NCBI GenBank assembly: GCA_041167675.1
Contig: JBEEIB010000146.1
Span: forward strand, 2,935-66,934
Reading direction: 5' to 3'
DNA from: Verrucomicrobiota bacterium
GTDB taxonomy: Bacteria > Verrucomicrobiota > Verrucomicrobiia > Chthoniobacterales > JAFAMB01
Length of the DNA stretch: 64,000 nt
Made by a program: the position numbers and the translations under genes. The notes under the pieces are model-generated. The model was not told the origin of the DNA. It did not search any database and was given only the letters and a program-made list of their open reading frames with translations. Of this stretch, positions 23,221 to 31,665 are shown in pieces. Position 1 is the first letter of the stretch, and the number at the start of each line of letters is the position of its first letter.

Positions 23221-23844
23221 CTATTTCTCGGTCGTTAAGAAGCAGGATGGAAACTTTTCCCTTACGTTCTTGATATACCGCACCCGGCTAGGAAGGCTTC
23301 CGAAGCGCGCCGTGTCGCACGGTGCAAACTCTCGTTCTATACCGTCCAAGCGGGTTACCCAGTTCCGGAGAGCCGCCGACCAATCAGCATCGCTTGGATT
23401 GGGCGTTGCCAGAAGCTCCTGGATTTTCGCTATCGCAAATTCCTTCAGAAAGATGGTCTCCGGTGATAAGAATCGAAGACAAACGGCATATTCGCCGCTC
23501 AAATAAGAAGTATATTCGCTCGCAATGCGATCTTCCGAGGGAGAGTCCCCGTAGACTTTCGCTGCTCTCACATAGCGCGCGCTGAACTCCTCCTTCATCC
23601 GGGCTCCAAGACTGCCTACCGAATCCGGAAACAGGAAAAAATCGGCGGGATACATTTCGATTCCATCCACGACGTAAGCTGGTCGAGGGAGGAGACCTTC
23701 TCGGATTTCGGACCTGTATTCCGCGGGAGTCCCTGTACGGCCGAGACAGAGCTCTTCGAGGGTATAGAAGTTGTCCTGAATGTATGTTCGATCCTCATTG
23801 GCGAGGACCGGCAAAGGGCTGTGAGTGGCAATGAAATCGGTCAT
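23221..23844 (-). CDS. Hypothetical protein, possibly DUF6058-like (a family annotated as natural-product associated)
   Basis: A 207-aa intact ORF. SYLSGEYAVCLRFLSPETI, EREFAPCDTARFGSLPSR and VREKFP resemble what I recall of DUF6058 proteins. This is unverified. Confidence 0.6.
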   Translation of the reverse strand: MTDFIATHSPLPVLANEDRTYIQDNFYTLEELCLGRTGTPAEYRSEIREGLLPRPAYVVDGIEMYPADFFLFPDSVGSLGARMKEEFSARYVRAAKVYGDSPSEDRIASEYTSYLSGEYAVCLRFLSPETIFLKEFAIAKIQELLATPNPSDADWSAALRNWVTRLDGIEREFAPCDTARFGSLPSRVRYIKNVREKFPSCFLTTEK

Positions 23845-24108
23845 AGCAGAACCAGATACAGAAGTCAGAATCTAGAATCTAGGAGGCAGAAGGCAAGAGG
23901 CAGCAAAATGACGATGCGAAACGTTTCTCGTCAATCACGCACTACTTCAGCTTGTTCGCCCCTTCTTTTGTCCTCAAGCCTTGACAGGGGATGCGGCTTC
24001 CCTGTAGCAATCGTTTAAATCGATCAGCTCTCGCTCTCTTTTGAAAATTTCGCTAGCAATTTTCCATCGCTCACGGGGTCGCACGAGCAGATCACCAGAT
24101 AACTAACT

Positions 24109-24456
24109 ATGCCAGGCTTAAACGACTTTCTTTCGCGCATACAGACCGATCACGCGTTCTATTTGCAGTTTCGAAAGAACCCGCAGGAAGCATTGACGCC
24201 TTACGAATTAAGCTCGGAAGAGCGAGCCGCTCTGATGGACTCTGGATCACAACTGTCCGCCCGCCTGGGAGAGGTGGTCTTCACTTTGACCGGGACCAAG
24301 AATTTTGTGTCGCTTGGGTCAGCCGATTGGCAGTTCGATCCTGCGGCTGCACTCAGGCGGCCTGAAATTCAGGAGAGCATCGCTCAAATTCGGAACGTGA
24401 CGACCAATGCGGATAGATTGACTCCAGTATTAGCGCTGATTGAACAGGTTGGATAA
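24109..24456 (+). CDS. Candidate split-borosin precursor peptide (115 aa) with an N-terminal borosin-binding-domain-like helix bundle
   Basis: MPGLNDFLSRIQTDHAFYLQFRKNPQEALTPYELSSEERAALMDSG resembles the region preceding the core in OphMA (..LDPKALADYKADHRAFAQSVPDLTPQERAALELGD..) and the N-terminus of stand-alone SonA-type precursors. The stop codon overlaps the ATG of the next gene (TAATG). Confidence 0.65.
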   Translation: MPGLNDFLSRIQTDHAFYLQFRKNPQEALTPYELSSEERAALMDSGSQLSARLGEVVFTLTGTKNFVSLGSADWQFDPAAALRRPEIQESIAQIRNVTTNADRLTPVLALIEQVG

Positions 24457-25268
24457 TGAGCCCGACCTACCAGACTGAGGACTCTTTGCCATTTGATATA
24501 GCCATCGTGGGGCTGGGGATTGTTGGAATCCATCAGATCACCCGGGAGGTCGAAGAGACCATTCGCCGGTGCCGGCATACCTTTGTTATCGATTCGGGAT
24601 TTGGTGTTGTCCCCTATCTTGAGGGTATCTGCCCTGAGGTGACGAGCCTCTTCTCCTTTTATGAGAAGGGCAAGCAGCGGCTGCCCACCTATCGCAGGAT
24701 GGCCGCTGAAGTGATTAATGCGGCAATTACCTGCTCGCCGGTCTGTTTTGCCACCTACGGTCATCCGCTGGTCTATTGCTATCCGGCGGTGCTTATTCAA
24801 AGAGCTGCCAAACTCCTCGATCTCCAAGTGGAGACTTTTCCAGGCATCTCTTCGTTGGACACATTGTTCGTGGATCTCGGCATCGATGTCGCCGCCGACG
24901 GATTGCAAATGTACGAAGTCACCGATCTGCTTCTACGCCGCAGGCCAATCCAAAATGATGTCCCCTGCGTTCTTTGGCAGCTTATTGCGATTGGTGAGCC
25001 GAACTACCAGACGGATCGCATCTCGGCCGAACGGTTTTTGCCTCTGCAAGACTATTTGCTCGAATTCTATCCCCCCGAACATCCGATTATTCTAGTAACC
25101 TCAAAAACGTTTCCATTGCTTCAGTCGACGGTTAAAAAGTATCGGTTGGGGACGCTAGCGGCCGATCTGGAGCATGGTCCACAAGTGGGTAATCTTTACA
25201 TCCCTGCTGTGCGCAGCCGGGAGGTTCGAGATCACAAGCTCCTGGAAAAGTTGACCGCCCGGATTTAA
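24456..25268 (+). CDS. SAM-dependent methyltransferase of the tetrapyrrole-methylase fold, borosin alpha-N-methyltransferase-like (OphMA/SonM type)
   Basis: FDIAIVGLGIVGIHQIT, FYEKGKQRLPTYRRM, ATYGHPLVY, FPGISSLDTLFVDLGID, VLWQLIAIGE and LYIPA line up with OphMA. The recalled OphMA motifs are YYDNGKSRLNTYTQM, FYGHPGVF, LPGVSAEDCLFADLCID, VLFQVGCVG and FYIPP. Confidence 0.8.
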   Translation: MSPTYQTEDSLPFDIAIVGLGIVGIHQITREVEETIRRCRHTFVIDSGFGVVPYLEGICPEVTSLFSFYEKGKQRLPTYRRMAAEVINAAITCSPVCFATYGHPLVYCYPAVLIQRAAKLLDLQVETFPGISSLDTLFVDLGIDVAADGLQMYEVTDLLLRRRPIQNDVPCVLWQLIAIGEPNYQTDRISAERFLPLQDYLLEFYPPEHPIILVTSKTFPLLQSTVKKYRLGTLAADLEHGPQVGNLYIPAVRSREVRDHKLLEKLTARI

Positions 25269-25402
25269 CAAGTTGGGCGCGACTTCCCTCGCGGAGGTAC
25301 CACAGCGTTCGCCGTAGCATTCAACCAATAAGCATCCCCCGCGCTAGGCAACATGGAATGCTTGCCATCGGGTAAGTCTTGTGATCGCTTGCCGATCGAT
25401 CA

Positions 25403-27682
25403 CTAGTGTGGCGCTAGCGCTGCCAACAATTTGTCGTAGCGCGGATCCTTACGGAGCGGGTCGAAATAAGGTTCGAGTTTGAGATGGTTGTAGAAAAGGC
25501 CGTACGGTACCTTCGATAAGATGTCCAACTGTTGAAAGGCGAGATCCGGATGGTCAGCCCACGCGTAAACGACAGCAAGATTCATCGCTACGAGGGGACC
25601 ATCCACGGCATCTTTAGAGACGGGTAACAGCTCAACGGCGCGCTCGCCTTCGGAGATGGCATCGTCTTTGTGCCCGAGCAACGCATCGACTACGGCCAAG
25701 TTGCTGAGCAGGATAGCATTTGTCGGTGAAGTCTCGACTTTCTGATTCAATAGCCGCCTTGTCCCGGAACCAACTTGTTCATCGGGCACTTGTCCCTGGA
25801 GCCGAGCGAGCAAGATGGAGTAACAATCAGCCGGAGCCGCAATGTCTCCGTAACGAAATAGCAAACCGTCCTCGCCTCTCACCTTATCAAGTAACTGTCT
25901 CGCTTGCTGCCAATCGCGACGACCAAGCGCTAGATTGAGGCGTTCAGCAAGAACAAGCTTGTCATCCGGTGTGGATGCAGAGAGCGATTCGAGTTGCGGG
26001 AGGTACGCCGTATCGTCTCCCGTTTTTACGACGTTCACATAATATTCCTTCCTCGCCTTCGCCATAGGCGCGTCTGGAACCCGAGCGATCAGTTGATCCC
26101 AGGCCCGCTCAGCTAGCGGGAACTGTCGAGTATTCGAGAGCGTTTCCGCTAAATCTGAAAGCGGTAGAGGATCGTGTGGATCGAGCTTGATTGCTTCGTT
26201 GAAAGAGTGAATTGCGCTCTCAAATCTGCCTTGTCGGCGAGCTATTAGCGCTTCGAGATAGTCCGTTTCGGCATTATTTGGCAAGCCTCGACGAGCGATC
26301 GCTAGCTCCGCCCGCGCGCGTTCATAGTCACGCCGGCTTCGGTAGAGGTGATTAGCGTGGGCTAACCGAACCTCTGGAAGATCGGGTTGCAGACGCAACG
26401 CGTCGTTGATTGCTTGATCTCCCAGAGTGCGCTGCGCAGAGCTCGGATCCCAAACAAGGTCCAAAGCGTCATGGGTATAGGCCATCAAACAATATGCACT
26501 CGCAAAATTCGGGTCGAGTTCCACGGCTTTCTGGAGCAGACTCAGAGCATCGCGCATGGGCCTCTCCTGGTGTCCGCTCACAGCGGACTGCGCACTTGTA
26601 ACTTTTTCTTTAGCCTTAAGATACATGTCGTATGCCTCTAAATTCTCGGTTGGTTTTTGTTCGATCCGCTTTTTTTCTTCTGGAGAGAGTGCAGCTGATA
26701 GTTTGCCCGCAATAGTTTGAGCAACCTCGCTCTGAATTGTAAAGATATCAGTGAGATCCCGGTCGTAGCTATCAGCCCAGACTGCGTTATCACTACGAGC
26801 GTCGACCAACTGAGCACTCACCCGAACGCGGTTTCCGTCCCGGCGCACCGTTCCTTCCAGTACGTTCGCGACACCCAACGCATAGGCAATCTGGCGCATA
26901 TCACGCTTGGTGTCGGCCCGATACTGCATGACCGAGGTGCGGCTGATGACTTTGAGTTGGGCGATCTTGGCCAGGTTATTGAGAATTTCGTCCTGAACTC
27001 CGTCCGCGAAATAGCCATCATCCTTAGCCGCACTGATGCTCTCGAAGGGAAGGACGGCAACGCTCTTAGCCGAAATCTCGGCGAGCAAACCGTTGGCAAT
27101 GGACTTTTGTTGTGCGGCCCGATCCGCTGCGATGTAGAACCACGCAGCTGTCAGGATTGCTGCGGCTGCGACGGCCAGGCCGCCTCCAACTAGCCAGTTG
27201 CGACGCTTCAGTGGGACAGCCAGGCCCGGGTAAGCAGTTGCTGACAGCGCGGCGGGATCCGGGTTGTTGATTGAGTCGCCGTTGGCCAACAGCTTTTTCA
27301 CCCGTTCAGTTAACGAGTTGAGATGCTTTTCCAGCGGAGCTGAGACCGCATCTAACCAGTGTACTGTCTCCAGGAAATAGCTCAGGCTGGTCTGCGGCAG
27401 CGTATCTTCGATGCGAAAAGGAATGACCTGCAGTCCCAGTGAGAAAGCTTTAGCAACTTCCCGTCGAACATGGCCCGAACCGTTCGCGTTTTCGGAAAAC
27501 ACGAGAACGAATACTCGACAAGCGGTGATCCCTCGCATGATCCCTTCGGTCCAATCGGACCCGTATTCAATGTTCCGAGGGGCCATCCAGCACGGGATCT
27601 CGGCAGACTCCAGCTGATGGCAAATAGCATCTGCTATTTCCTTGTCCTTACTCGAATGGCTAATAAAGACCTGTGGCGTCAT
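25403..27682 (-). CDS. TIR domain, TM helix, TolB-N-like periplasmic module and TPR-repeat protein
   Basis: A 759-aa intact ORF. The N-terminal TIR_2-like sequence is VFISHSSKDKEIADAICHQLESAEIPCWMAPRNIEYGSDW...VFVLVFSENANGSGHVRREV. The TM helix is WLVGGGLAVAAAAILTAAWFYIA. It is followed by SVAVLPFESISAAKDDGYFADGVQDEILNNLAKI...VLEGTVRRDGNRVRVSAQLVD and then multiple TPR units. Confidence 0.9.
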   Translation of the reverse strand: MTPQVFISHSSKDKEIADAICHQLESAEIPCWMAPRNIEYGSDWTEGIMRGITACRVFVLVFSENANGSGHVRREVAKAFSLGLQVIPFRIEDTLPQTSLSYFLETVHWLDAVSAPLEKHLNSLTERVKKLLANGDSINNPDPAALSATAYPGLAVPLKRRNWLVGGGLAVAAAAILTAAWFYIAADRAAQQKSIANGLLAEISAKSVAVLPFESISAAKDDGYFADGVQDEILNNLAKIAQLKVISRTSVMQYRADTKRDMRQIAYALGVANVLEGTVRRDGNRVRVSAQLVDARSDNAVWADSYDRDLTDIFTIQSEVAQTIAGKLSAALSPEEKKRIEQKPTENLEAYDMYLKAKEKVTSAQSAVSGHQERPMRDALSLLQKAVELDPNFASAYCLMAYTHDALDLVWDPSSAQRTLGDQAINDALRLQPDLPEVRLAHANHLYRSRRDYERARAELAIARRGLPNNAETDYLEALIARRQGRFESAIHSFNEAIKLDPHDPLPLSDLAETLSNTRQFPLAERAWDQLIARVPDAPMAKARKEYYVNVVKTGDDTAYLPQLESLSASTPDDKLVLAERLNLALGRRDWQQARQLLDKVRGEDGLLFRYGDIAAPADCYSILLARLQGQVPDEQVGSGTRRLLNQKVETSPTNAILLSNLAVVDALLGHKDDAISEGERAVELLPVSKDAVDGPLVAMNLAVVYAWADHPDLAFQQLDILSKVPYGLFYNHLKLEPYFDPLRKDPRYDKLLAALAPH

Positions 27683-28108: not shown

Positions 28109-28960
28109 CTAATTCGTGGCTCCAGCCGTCAATCCCCCACGCCAATATTTCCCAAGGAGGATAAACGCCGCGATGAGCGGCAAAACGCTGATGAGCGAGC
28201 CCAGCGCAATCAGGTGATAGGATGGTTTTCCGCCGCCGGCGGCGTTGATGACGCTGTTCCAAATGTTCAAGCCTAGCGTTAACGGGTATAGATCGTCGTT
28301 GCTGAGGACGATCAAAGGCAGAAAGAAGTTGTTCCAGGCACCGACAAAACTGAGCAACGCCACTGTGACCAAGCCGGACTGCATGAGGGGCATTCCGAGA
28401 TACCAAAAGATCCGCAGCTCACCGGCGCCATCCAGGCGCGCGGCTTCGATCAGATCGTTGGGAAATGAGGCGTTCCAGAAAACCCGCATCAGATAGAGAC
28501 CAAAGGGATTCACCAGGCTCGGCAAGATGACCCCCCAGATGCTGTTCACCAAGCCGAGCCGATAAAGCATGAGAAATAAGGGCAGAACCAGGGCGGTCGA
28601 AGGCACCATGATGGTACCGAGAATGAAGTTAAAAAGAAAGTGTTTACCGGGGAAGTCGTATTTGGCAAAGGCGTAGCCGCCCAACGCGCAAATCAATGTG
28701 CTTCCCACTGAAATCGATCCGGCGTAAAGGGGCGAATTGCCAAACCAACGGACAAAAATCCCGTCTCGAAAAGCGAACAGGTCTACGATGTTTTCAAAGA
28801 AGTGAGGCGGATTGGCGAACCAGAACCCGAAAGTCGTGAAAATCTGACTACTATCCTTGGTCACGGCCGCCAGGATCCAAGTCGCCGGCAGGATGCAATA
28901 GAGAAGGAAGATCGCGAGGACGGCATGACGAAGTGCTCCGGGGAGGGAACGTGCGCCAAT
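28109..28960 (-). pseudogene. MalG-like sugar ABC permease lacking a start codon (5' truncated)
   Basis: The ORF-track version starts at the GTG at 28864, inside TM1. The frame stays open upstream (IGARSLPGALRHAVLAIFLLYCILPATWILAA) to a TGA, with no ATG/GTG/TTG. The EAA loop is FPNDLIEAARLDGAGELRIFWYLGMP. Confidence 0.75.
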
Positions 28961-28987
28961 ATGGGCGGTAGGGACCGGCTCCTGCCG

Positions 28988-29434
28988 GTCCCATTGAAGC
29001 GAGCCGACCTCTCACCTGGGCCGATGTGTGAAGGGGATTGGAGTGCGAAAAGCGGTTATCTCGCCGCACTCGAATTAATCCGCCATCACCGAGGTAATTT
29101 CACCGCGCTGGTGACCGCCAACGATCATAGGGCGCTGGGCGCATTGAGTGCTTTTCACAAGAACGGAATCGCAGTCCCCGATGAAATATCGGTCATTGGA
29201 TACGACGGCATGCCGGAGTCTGAGTTTTATCAGCCCTCGCTGACCACCATTTACCAGGATTTCGCGGCTCTCGGAGAGATGAGTGTTGAGTTTCTTCTAA
29301 GAATGATCAACCAGCCTGGTACTTCGCCTCAACGTTTCATTTTGAAGCCGGTCCTGGTCCCCAGAAGGAGCACCGCGCCGCAGAACCACAAAAGAAAATA
29401 TAAACCACGAATGGACGCTAATGGACGCGAATAA
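28988..29434 (+). pseudogene. C-terminal half of a LacI-family regulator (no HTH and no N-terminal sugar-binding subdomain)
   Basis: GDWSAKSGYLAALELIRHHRGNFTALVTANDHRALGALSAFHKNGIAVPDEISVIGYDGMPESEFYQPSLTTIYQDFAALGEMSVEFLL is typical LacI/GalR C-terminal sequence. The upstream in-frame residues are non-homologous and overlap the permease remnant on the other strand. Confidence 0.7.
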
Positions 29435-29690
29435 ACGAACTTAATTCGTGTTCATTCGTGTCGATTCGCGGTTGAAAAAACCTCGACCAAACAGCGAAAA
29501 GCAAAAACTAACCACGAGTAGACGCTAATGGACGCGAATCAACGGATCTAATGCGTGTTCATTCGCGTCGATTCGCGGTTGAAAAAGCCTCGACCAAACA
29601 GCGAAAAGCAAAAACTAACCACGAATAGACACTAATGGACGCGAATCAACGGATCTAATGCGTGTTCATTCGTGTCGATTCGCGGTTGGA
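29403..29690. repeat. Tandem repeat with a 107-bp unit in about 2.7 copies
   Basis: Units start at 29403, 29510 and 29617 (AACCACGARTRGACRCTAATGGACGCGAAT...GTGTTCATTCGYGTCGATTCGCGGTTGAAAAA.CCTCGACCAAACAGCGAAAAGCAAAAACT). Each unit contains the hairpin GACGCGAAT...ATTCGCGTC. Confidence 0.9.
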
Positions 29691-29700
29691 AAACAACGAA

Positions 29701-31665
29701 ATGACGTCACGAACGCTACTCTCTACACCAAGCCTTGGTGTTTGTTATTATCCGGAACATTTGCTCACGGATTATTGGGCTACCGATTTTGATTCCATGC
29801 GTGAAATCGGAATACGCATCGTTCGCGTAGGTGAGTTCGCGTGGAGTAGGCTTGAGCCGGAGCCAAGCGAATACCGATTCTCCTGGTTGGAGCAACTTCT
29901 GGATTTGGCCGAATCGAAGAGTTTGTCCATTGTCCTTGGTACCCCAACGTCCGCGCGCCGAAGTGGCTGGTGGATCGGATGCCTGACATGGTTGCGGTCG
30001 ATGCATGGACAACGGAAAGGATTCGGTTCGCGGCGCCATTACTGTTTTTCGCATCTCGGTTACCGAAAGGAATGTGTGCGCATTGTAACTAAATTGGCCC
30101 AAGCCTTCGGCGAACACCCGGCGGTTATTGCCTGGCAGACGGACAACGAATTTGGTTGCCACGATACCGTACTGAGCTATTCCGACGCCGATCGCTCCGC
30201 CTTTCGAGCCTGGTTGCGAAACCGCTATCTATCAATTGAACAGTTAAACCAGGCTTGGGGAAATGTTTTCTGGAGCATGGAGTACAGGAGCTTCGACGAG
30301 ATCGAGCTTCCGAATCTTACGGTTACAGATCCAAATCCAGCTCATGAGCTCGATTATCGCCGCTTCTCCTCGGACGAGGTCGACAGCTTCAATCGGTTAC
30401 AAGTGGACCTTATTCGTCAGTATTCGCCGGGGCGAGCGGTTCTTCACAATTTCATGGCGACCTTTCTGGACTTCGACCATTTCAAAGTTTCCAAATCGCG
30501 GATGCGGCGAGTTGGGATTCTTATCCGTTGGGGGCGCTCACGCTGCTGAAGGCGCCCGAAGCGTACAAAGCCCGCCACCTTCGACTGGGTGATCCCGATC
30601 TCAGTGCCTTTCATCATGACCTTTATCGAGCCTGCGGCAGAGGTCGATTCTGGATTATGGAGCAGCAACCCGGGCCAGTGAACTGGGCGGCCTACAACCC
30701 TGCTCCGCACCCTGGCGCGGTTCGCCTTTGGACCTTCGAGGCGATCGCCCACGGGGCCGAAGTCGTCAGTTATTTCTGTTGGCGACAAGCGCCTTTTGCT
30801 CAGGAACAGATGCACTCCGGGTTGAATCTGCCCGATCGACAACCTGACGTCGGTGCATTCGAAGTTCGTCAAACTGCGAATGAACTTTCCCAGCTCGATC
30901 TAGCGTCGTTAGTGCCGGCAGAGACCGCACTGGTGTACGACTACGAAGCCGCATGGACGCTCGCTATTCAGCCGCAAAGGGAGGACTTTGATTACTTTGC
31001 GGTAGCCATCAGCTTCTATCGAGCGCTCAGACGATTCGGTCTGAATATCGATATTCTTCCACCGGGCGCTCCATTAGATGGTTACAAATTGGTAATGATT
31101 CCTCCGCTCCCAATCGTGTCTGCGAGCTTGATGCAATCCCTCACGCGATTTAATGGTCAGGTTCTCATCGGTCCGCGTACTGGATCCAAAACGCCAAATT
31201 TTCAAATCCCGGCCGAACTCCCGCCCGGTCCACTCCAAGAGGTGATGCCGATAAAAATCGTTCGGGTGGAGTCTTTACCGGATTTTGTTTCCTTCCCCTT
31301 GGTGTGGGAATCGGCCCAGTACCAATGCAATTTATGGCTCGAACACGTGCGAACTGATCTGGTGCCATTCATCCGGCTCGCAGATGGACACGGAATCGGC
31401 TATCGGAACGGCAACATCACCTATCTGGCGACGTTGCCGGAGCAATTTTTGCTGGGCGAAATTGTTGAAGATCTTCTAAACGCCGAAGGGTTCAAATTGA
31501 GCGAAATACCACCAGGCATTCGCGTCCGCACCCGCGGGAAGCATCGGTTTTTCTTTAACTATAATCCCGAACCGGTGAAGTTGAATCTGCCGCCTGAAAT
31601 TCGTAATGGGTGTCGCGGAGATGCCGGCCGCTGGTGTGACAATTGTGGAAGTGGCTCCGCTTTAA
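29701..31665 (+). pseudogene. GH42 beta-galactosidase with at least four frame disruptions
   Basis: GVCYYPEH, WQTDNEFGCH, ASWDSYPLG and FWIMEQQPGPVNW match Thermus-type GH42. The expected PPKWLVDRMPDMVAVDA is out of frame between about 29955 and 30010. There is a frame switch at the AAA run 30493-30495. The C-terminus FVMGVAEMPAAGVTIVEVAPL* is only reached after a shift at the AAA run 31597-31599. Confidence 0.85.

Follow-up and report, generated by a model that had tools for sequence, protein, structure and literature searches.

Two adjacent, co-directional genes in the 64,000-nucleotide stretch of contig JBEEIB010000146.1 from a Verrucomicrobiota bacterium (the whole stretch analysed here, hereafter the window) very probably form a split borosin module, in which a small precursor peptide would dock through an N-terminal borosin-binding domain (BBD) on a separate alpha-N-methyltransferase (NMT) and be methylated by it on the peptide backbone. 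Read from its sequence, the locus is by architecture a Type IV split borosin, that is, a standalone NMT accompanied by a BBD-bearing precursor, within the RiPPs (peptides that are made on the ribosome and modified after translation). The evidence consists of the homology of the enzyme, the conservation of its active site, the synteny of the two genes, and a precursor in which a conserved leader is followed by a variable core position. To our knowledge, borosins are the only ribosomal route to backbone N-methylated peptides. Backbone N-methylation is prized for protease resistance and membrane permeability, and of the borosins only a handful of natural products and about two dozen enzymes have been studied so far.

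Both open reading frames (ORFs) are real genes (Table 1). They had been proposed as a borosin pair from the letters of the window alone (hereafter, the original prediction), and both were recovered there with the same coordinates, strands and lengths. The one-base overlap that had been described is likewise present in the sequence: the stop codon TAA of the precursor and the start codon ATG of the NMT share one base and read together as TAATG (junction GGA TAA TG, context GTTGGATAATGAGC), from which translational coupling of the two genes was read. The precursor has 49 homologs of conserved length and 40–97% identity in a database of 5.8 billion proteins, and an exhaustive hidden Markov model (HMM) search of 1.84 billion representative proteins extended its family to 124 clusters at E ≤ 0.001. 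Among the candidates from a word-indexed search, 488 relatives of the NMT were found at E ≤ 1e-10. The identical precursor/NMT pair is also carried by soil-metagenome contigs of up to 70 kb, and the nearest genomic loci belong to metagenome-assembled genomes of Verrucomicrobiae / Chthoniobacterales, which supports the earlier guess of a host from the Planctomycetes-Verrucomicrobia-Chlamydiae group. A scan of positions 23700-25500 for promoters and terminators gave no signal above the shuffled expectation.

Table 1. Features of the predicted borosin pair and of its flanking genes, in window positions.
Feature	Position	Strand	Description and basis
Predicted borosin precursor gene, tripartite	24109..24456	+	115 aa, stop codon within the span; ORF, homologs, synteny
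BBD-like leader, residues 1-52	24109..24264	+	SonA alignment, Foldseek, low entropy
Hypervariable segment, putative core, residues 53-75 (LGEVVFTLTGTKNFVSLGSADWQ)	24265..24333	+	Entropy peak, indels, disorder
Conserved C-terminal helical module, residues 76-115	24334..24453	+	Conservation, predicted helices; possible follower or second docking element
Predicted borosin-type peptide alpha-N-methyltransferase (NMT) gene	24456..25268	+	270 aa, standalone domain without fused BBD
NMT key residues	Y69 24660-24662; R75 24678-24680; Y79 24690-24692; Y101 24756-24758; also W174-Q175	+
TIR - single transmembrane helix - TolB-N/FlgO-like - TPR protein gene	25403..27682	-	759 aa; convergent with the NMT gene; Pfam, tblastn
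DUF6058 protein gene	23221..23844	-	207 aa; divergent from the precursor gene; PF19531 1.2e-20, weak MerR-DNA-bind-like match

The methyltransferase and its putative substrate

Sequence and modelling support the 270-residue ORF as a borosin-type peptide alpha-N-methyltransferase, with an activity that is predicted. Its only Pfam match is the generic TP_methylase family (PF00590, 1.2e-13), and this match, an AlphaFold2 (AF2) model with a predicted local distance difference test (pLDDT) score of 80.7 and the Foldseek comparison together confirm the two-domain tetrapyrrole-methylase fold that the original prediction had assigned. When the NMT was searched against all PDB sequences, the best 25 matches were all borosin NMTs, with single-sequence E-values of 5e-24 for dbOphMA, ~1e-22 for OphMA, 5e-18 for SonM and 5e-15 for MroMA; the first non-borosin match, a cobalamin-related protein, had an E-value of 1.6. 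A profile of 38 members of the NMT clade matched borosin NMTs in the PDB at 3e-34 to 2e-25, as against 0.05 for a precorrin-2 methyltransferase, and the top 50 Foldseek matches of the model were all borosin NMTs (OphA, dbOphMA, SonM and MroMA; TM-score 0.80–0.85). Corrin methylases score about 100 bits below borosin NMTs for this query. The earlier choice of a borosin enzyme over a corrin or siroheme methylase, which was to be abandoned if the closest homologs proved to be of the CbiF/CobI/SUMT type, is therefore borne out, because the closest homologs are borosin NMTs. Residues 10-263 align to NMT domains only, so the protein is discrete and carries neither BBD nor core; its identity to characterised borosin NMTs, type 0 enzymes included, is 24–28%.

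The catalytic residues are conserved. In an explicit alignment with SonM taken from the Shewanella locus, Y69, R75, Y79 and Y101 of the NMT align with SonM Y58, R67, Y71 and Y93, the mutation of which reduces or abolishes activity (PMC8429565), and W174-Q175 align with the SonM 'bottom lock' W166-Q167; the OphMA residues Y66, R72, Y76 and Y98 are conserved as well. Across the 38 clade members, Y69, R75, Y79, Y101 and Q175 are invariant and W174 is nearly so (≥90%). A genuine YabN N-domain (locus L016) instead has Phe, Pro and Thr at the positions of R75, Y101 and W174 and lacks two loops. All the motifs quoted in the original prediction were found in the two translations, namely FYEKGKQRLPTYRRM, ATYGHPLVY, FPGISSLDTLFVDLGID, VLWQLIAIGE and LYIPA in addition to the peptide N-terminus and the hydrophobic stretch GEVVFTLTGTKNFVSLG. 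Of the two borosin-detection motifs YGHP/DCLFAD (the antiSMASH BorosinMT rule), the NMT has TYGHP and, for the second, the variant LDTLFVDLGID.

The N-terminal part of the precursor resembles the leader of SonA, as had been suggested from its sequence. The precursor alone aligns from residue 1 with SonA residues 1-46 in the PDB sequence search (E ~0.2), and a 26-sequence precursor profile matches seven SonA variants (E 0.024) and no other PDB sequence at E ≤ 10, in a start-to-start alignment that makes residues 1-57 collinear with SonA 1-58. SonA chains are also the best Foldseek matches of the precursor model (probability 0.63, 42 columns at 1.5 Å), at a Foldseek E-value of ~1 and with no match of any kind at E ≤ 0.001. 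In the AF2 model (pLDDT 66), helices are predicted at residues 4-13, 15-23, 25-29 and 36-59 of the leader. The leader additionally gives a weak Pfam match to LigA and a sub-threshold NCBIfam match to the NHLP-clan model NF038399 (4.6e-8); genuine SonA and all sister precursor subfamilies give the same weak matches, which are thus a property of the leader fold and constitute no competing assignment.

Conservation divides the precursor into three parts. Column entropy lies between 0.05 and 1.0 bit across residues 1-40, rises to its maximum of 2.3–2.4 bits at residues 56-70, where homologs carry insertions of up to ~30 residues, and drops back to 0.9–1.7 bits in the tail; residues 48-74 are predicted to be disordered (pLDDT <50). 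On these entropy and disorder profiles, GEVVFTLTGTKNFVSLG, which the original prediction had put forward as the core, coincides with a hypervariable, disordered segment directly after the BBD, and the SonA core is placed in the same way relative to its BBD. Residues ~53-75 would accordingly be the core to be backbone-N-methylated. At the corresponding position, the sister subfamilies have segments rich in Val, Ile, Gly and Thr (ITIKISG; GVGVIGV; GIVVRTPITFLGM).

The tail forms three predicted helices (residues 78-82, 85-96 and 100-114; pLDDT ~70–77) with the consensus FD..AAL.RPE[IV]Q..I.QIR....DRL..VLAL[IM]EQ[IV]G in the subfamily to which the window belongs (subfamily A, see below). A tail of the more general type [IV]..[IV]..IR.A.T..[DE]R..A...LME.[IL]G ends the precursors of subfamilies A, B and C and those of Streptomyces, and in the exhaustive HMM search the module was seen on its own only in short fragments. 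The C-terminal extension of about 45 residues that had been pointed out is therefore present, but it is no oddity of this locus, being a conserved module throughout the clade. Most likely, these C-terminal ~40 residues act as a follower or as a second recognition element, with the NMT or an unlinked protease as the recognising partner.

Distribution, subfamilies and known relatives

When one genome per species and JGI metagenomes were scanned, 96 NMT loci were obtained, at 77 of which tblastn detected a BBD-type ORF whose stop codon abuts or overlaps the NMT start. The pair occurs in at least five phyla (Verrucomicrobiota, Actinomycetota, Myxococcota, Alphaproteobacteria and Acidobacteriota). 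Six loci with at least 400 bp of upstream sequence had no tblastn match to a precursor; reading of their ORFs uncovered a diverged or SonA-like precursor at L008, L009, L013 and L015, the Streptomyces/Actinocorallia copies being diverged, and at L011 and L090 no precursor was found upstream by tblastn or ORF reading. The original prediction had tied its own survival to the presence of conserved homologs of the small ORF beside such methylases in other genomes, and these 77 loci provide them.

Three precursor subfamilies can be distinguished, which track the identity of their NMTs to that of the window. Subfamily A, which includes the window, is confined to NMTs at least 68% identical, from Verrucomicrobiae / Chthoniobacterales, and its precursors of 113–143 residues have the hypervariable middle. 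In subfamily B (NMT 55–65% identical; precursors of ~113–127 residues), the middle is conserved (ITIKISGTHDWVNR), and the pair is accompanied by an alpha/alpha-toroid protein resembling squalene-hopene cyclases and prenyltransferases (346–393 residues) and by a convergent protein of ~370–400 residues, for which no Pfam or NCBIfam match was found; the conserved middle and these partners characterise loci L023, L052, L055, L066, L067, L070, L071, L089 and L092. Subfamily C (NMT 51–56% identical) comprises Actinomycetota, Nannocystis, Microvirga and Acidobacteriota, and its precursors of 170–310 residues contain a long poly-proline spacer followed by GIGIGPVPP...GVGVIGVGHHDFFNSF or GIFITPTPPIDIGVTPSV...GIVVRTPITFLGM. 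The spacers range from ~40 to more than 100 residues (L003, L004, L005, L007 1224-6034, L012, L103 and L105). After the NMT, a co-directional operon encodes a Stf0 sulfotransferase, an unknown protein of 252 residues, a 2-oxoglutarate-Fe(II) oxygenase, a short-chain dehydrogenase/reductase and a TIGR03975 'RiPP maturation radical SAM C-methyltransferase', the last with 667 bits, above the cutoff of the model. The presence of this TIGR03975 enzyme independently marks the precursor family as RiPP precursors.

Several observations were made in passing on these relatives. Two precursor genes are present at the subfamily-A loci L027, L028, L039, L040/L042, L048 and L121, arranged as an upstream tandem or flanking the NMT on both sides, and their variable segments differ. 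At L023 of subfamily B, a patatin/DUF3376 protein stands in place of the convergent protein of ~370–400 residues. The loci of subfamily C, from Actinomycetota, Nannocystis, Microvirga and Acidobacteriota, have the look of an uncharacterised RiPP cluster that contains a borosin pair and is much larger. The long proteins P0259 (628 residues), P0224 (451 residues) and P0251 (336 residues) have BBD-like stretches that are internal or repeated, five of them in P0259, and may represent fused or multi-BBD borosin architectures. At L015 (2725-5004), a distant Myxococcales NMT of 26% identity has a classical SonA-like precursor of 69 residues upstream and a protein of 409 residues directly downstream, and appears to be a different borosin cluster type.

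Borosins are classified by architecture (10.1101/2021.12.24.474128; 10.1101/2024.01.09.574750), and published mining has produced more than 2,600 predicted clusters in all, with hundreds of Type IV NMTs. The locus in the window agrees with Type IV in its discrete NMT, in the N-terminal BBD on a separate precursor and in the adjacent, co-directional genes conserved across genomes. A core that forms the C-terminal end of the precursor, as in SonA, is not found here, where a helical module of ~40 residues follows; as the published type definitions rest on the placement of the BBD, this feature departs from the SonA paradigm only.

Among the closest known systems is SonM/SonA of Shewanella oneidensis (PDB 7LTC; PMC8429565, PMC10549244). 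Common to both systems are a discrete NMT of ~265 residues, a separate precursor with a helical BBD, the Y/R/Y/Y and W-Q residues, a core just past the BBD, adjacent co-directional genes and an adjoining gene for a membrane protein whose TPR region is periplasmic and whose signalling domain is cytoplasmic. They differ in that the NMTs are only ~24–25% identical, the precursor gene comes first in the window and the NMT gene first in Shewanella, SonA ends a few residues past its core whereas the window precursor continues into the conserved module of 40 residues, the neighbour is a TPR-TM-GGDEF protein in Shewanella and a TIR-TM-TPR protein in the window (TM, transmembrane helix), and the window lacks a nearby aspartic peptidase. 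The fungal fused Type I enzymes OphMA and dbOphMA are the best matches of the NMT (5e-24, TM-score up to 0.85), and the hydrophobic, Val/Gly/Thr-rich putative core of the window is reminiscent of omphalotin-type cores; unlike the present pair, however, they are autocatalytic eukaryotic precursors with BBD and core fused C-terminally to the NMT, share 26–28% identity with the window NMT and have Y63 where it has Phe.

A sister of the window pair has already been catalogued. In Dataset 2 of the preprint by Lee et al. (2024), RODEO gives Aldersonia sp. MBD0324551.1, encoded beside a 246-residue NMT (MBD0324550.1), the score of a valid borosin precursor, which is a bioinformatic prediction only. 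This subfamily-B precursor has the same tripartite build, with a BBD, ...RITISGTHDWVNR... and a tail ending ...AAVRLMELVD, and the pair differs from that of the window in its NMT (~60% identical), its conserved middle and its squalene-hopene-cyclase-like neighbour in place of the TIR-TPR protein.

Three further assignments were considered and rejected. The type 0 fused borosins FpeAM and SkoAM have the same order of BBD, core and NMT along the DNA, but type 0 is a single polypeptide whereas a TAA stop parts the two ORFs here; a split version of type 0 was dismissed on the 25–27% identity of the NMT to FpeAM/SkoAM and the lack of similarity of the peptide to their N-terminal regions. Leaders of the NHLP/Nif11 clan provide the best NCBIfam matches of the precursor leader (NF038399, 4.6e-8; TIGR04509, 9e-4), yet these fall below threshold (33 bits vs a cutoff of 40, and 19 vs 34), SonA gives the same weak match, and neither a Gly-Gly cleavage site in the precursor nor a C39 transporter within ±10 kb was found. 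The characterised Streptomyces pair SspM/SspA does not belong to the window clade, SspA being 81 residues long and without the conserved tail. The window thus combines an NMT from a deep uncharacterised clade, a precursor C-terminal module absent from SonA and SspA, a Verrucomicrobial host and a TIR-TPR partner. Our literature searches on Verrucomicrobial borosins, TIR partners and TIGR04509/TIGR04510 returned nothing relevant, and no mention of such a host or of such a partner for borosins was found in the literature searched.

The TIR-TM-TPR neighbour and other flanking genes

The protein of 759 residues encoded convergently with the NMT has an N-terminal TIR domain (Pfam TIR_2, 5.7e-22), matches to TPR families, and one TM helix at residues ~161-185. 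The KRR just before this helix suggests that the TIR domain is cytoplasmic, in which case the TPR repeats would be periplasmic. By tblastn, the gene adjoins the pair at 29 of the 33 subfamily-A loci; the four exceptions have less than 1 kb of flank left, which in two of them is filled by a second precursor gene, and the other neighbours vary among subfamily-A loci, with CorA and a lyase at some and TonB receptors or sugar genes at others. The loci concerned are that in the window and L001, L002, L021, L024, L026-L050 and L121. At some of them the gene lies upstream, and at L021, L032, L035 and L045 two paralogs flank the pair. Of its relatives in reference genomes, the three homologs with 74% identity all adjoin a pair and a 45%-identical paralog does not, and tblastn did not find the gene at the loci of subfamilies B and C.

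Conservation of the neighbour is uneven, at ~91% for the TIR and membrane-proximal domains vs ~64% for the TPR region, and the Glu of HVRREVAKAF in the TIR domain is invariant. Residues 242-601 give a sub-threshold match (3e-9) to TIGR04510 'putative peptide modification system cyclase', a family whose members in NHLP-type systems have a nucleotide cyclase domain where the window protein has a TIR domain. Pfam annotation of the contig within ±10 kb of the pair found no protease, exporter, cobalamin or heme-biosynthesis gene and no flanking phage or mobile-element gene. The original prediction had noted the missing protease and exporter and the lack of cobalamin and heme genes, and in this it was right; the pair does, however, have a conserved neighbour, the TIR-TM-TPR gene that recurs in subfamily A.

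This protein is a possible sensor or partner of the pair. GGDEF proteins with periplasmic TPR are the commonest proteins co-encoded in published split-borosin clusters (56%), and the Shewanella counterpart, encoded directly after sonA, has the order TPR, TM, GGDEF. No sequence similarity was detected between it and the TIR-TPR protein (best E 0.14), so the parallel is architectural only. It is conceivable, though unlikely, that precursor, NMT and TIR-TM-TPR protein constitute a three-gene peptide-signalling circuit in Chthoniobacterales. The methylated peptide or precursor would then be the ligand of a periplasmic TolB-N/TPR sensor and would steer a cytoplasmic, NAD+-cleaving TIR output, and the precursor tail could be a second docking element, the core being held as a loop between two anchors.

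Other genes near the pair have weaker claims to membership. The DUF6058 gene has tblastn matches at related loci only in L029-L031, with a fragment in L002, and in L120; because it is limited to this subset, its membership in the system is doubtful. A P450 gene ~8 kb downstream was rejected as a tailoring enzyme on its absence from the other subfamily-A loci. From ~28109-30549 of the window and further downstream, several neighbouring genes appear fragmented relative to near-identical contigs (L017 13654-19017 vs L018 and L019): a BPD_transp_1 permease is in pieces of 58–138 residues, a glycoside hydrolase 42 comes in two parts of 295 + 266 residues, and a P450 has 188 residues in L017 vs 452 in L018. 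These fragments would be either pseudogenes or assembly/frameshift errors.

Proposed mechanism and alternative explanations

How the precursor docks, which residues form the core, how many methyl groups are added and where, how proteolysis frees the product and what the tail does we infer by analogy with characterised borosins. By analogy with SonM/SonA (PMC8429565), the helical BBD of the leader (residues ~1-52) would dock on an NMT dimer, with residues ~53-75 inserted into the cleft that lies between the two NMT domains. At least one backbone amide nitrogen of the core would then be methylated with S-adenosylmethionine as donor, proceeding from the N to the C terminus, through the Tyr/Arg/Tyr/Tyr active site known from OphMA and SonM. 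Translational coupling through TAATG would favour stoichiometric complex formation; the tail may serve as a follower or second anchor, and the product would be freed by a protease whose gene lies elsewhere.

A number of points weigh against this reading. The methylation step is a prediction from sequence, and no protease or exporter gene lies within ±10 kb. The NMT is at most 28% (24–28%) identical to any characterised borosin NMT, a YabN model scores 65.6 bits on it, and its equivalent of OphMA Y63 is Phe (F66), at a position variable in the clade. The similarity of the precursor to SonA is statistically weak (E 0.02–0.2; Foldseek E ~1) and draws its force from specificity and collinearity, and the conserved module of 40 residues past the putative core departs from the SonA paradigm.

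Two of the alternatives concern the enzyme. That it is a corrin or siroheme pathway enzyme of the CbiF/CobI/SUMT type, which might be thought from a Pfam result limited to generic TP_methylase and from weak NCBIfam matches to cobI and cobJ (E 3e-5, ~23 bits), is effectively refuted: the best scores, 23.7 bits (cutoff 163) and 23.1 bits (cutoff 246), fall 140–220 bits short, corrin methylases in the PDB reach E-values of 0.05–1.6 only, and no corrinoid gene context exists within ±10 kb. We regard as very unlikely that the protein is a YabN-like or other enzyme of the tetrapyrrole-methylase fold acting on a non-peptide substrate, with the small ORF as an unrelated conserved hypothetical gene. 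Its best NCBIfam match is indeed the YabN model, aligned over its full length at 4e-18 (65.6 bits), and weak matches to models of precorrin methylases come next; homologs are annotated as 'YabN' or 'precorrin-3B methylase' in their source records; and some predicted Type IV NMTs have been noted in print to fall between the characterised borosins and the tetrapyrrole-methylase outgroup. However, 65.6 bits is far under the cutoff of 525 and covers the N-domain of the model only, there being no MazG part in a protein that ends at residue 270, and borosin NMTs score higher (88–122 bits). R75, Y101, W174 and the two loops are common to the NMT and SonM and missing in a true YabN domain, a SonA-like ORF abutting the NMT start is strictly paired with the enzyme in at least five phyla, and cobalamin or siroheme genes are not nearby.

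The remaining alternatives accept the genes and question their function. Membership in an anti-phage defence system of peptide, NMT and TIR-TPR protein, with the TIR domain as NAD+-depleting effector, strikes us as highly improbable. Weak PADLOC matches to TIR models (PDC-S66 at 3e-7, SAVED_TIR, ThsB), a weak match to a retron TIR model, the invariant Glu in HVRREVAKAF and the patatin-like neighbour at one subfamily-B locus would fit it; yet the PADLOC matches are low-scoring and reflect the generic TIR domain only, the peptide and NMT match nothing in PADLOC, a TM helix with a periplasmic TolB-N/TPR region is an architecture that envelope sensors typically have, the locus is not flanked by genes of phages or mobile elements, and the TIR-TPR partner is absent from the other subfamilies. 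Distinctly unlikely, to our mind, is a genuine borosin pair whose variable segment is not a released product, the precursor being an intact methylated adaptor or regulator, or methylation of the leader marking it for a protease. For the latter version there is a reported precedent in SamA1 and shewasin A, where the leader is methylated and an unmethylated C-terminal peptide is released (10.1101/2024.01.09.574750); here, the unmethylated conserved C-terminal module would be what is released or functional. The lack of a protease or exporter within ±10 kb, the cross-phylum conservation of the C-terminal 40 residues, which one would not usually see in a dispensable follower, and the conserved rather than hypervariable middle of subfamily B (ITIKISGTHDWVNR) would agree with such a function. 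Against it, the middle of subfamily A is hypervariable with indels, as is usual for RiPP cores, a sister subfamily is found among several tailoring enzymes typical of natural-product maturation, and the genes of RiPP proteases often lie at other genomic sites.

We consider the split borosin module a useful rather than a surprising find, because it belongs to a known class on which large-scale mining has been carried out, and one published dataset already contains a sister subfamily. Its value lies in the deep uncharacterised NMT clade with an extra precursor module, which offers a minimal two-gene system in which to probe the function of that module. The lineage-specific TIR-TM-TPR neighbour, in its parallel to the GGDEF-TPR proteins, provides a second, independent handle on the function of bacterial borosins. 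If the signalling circuit proposed above were true, this neighbour would be a TIR counterpart of the unexplained GGDEF-TPR proteins, and this would point to borosins as signalling molecules rather than antibiotics.

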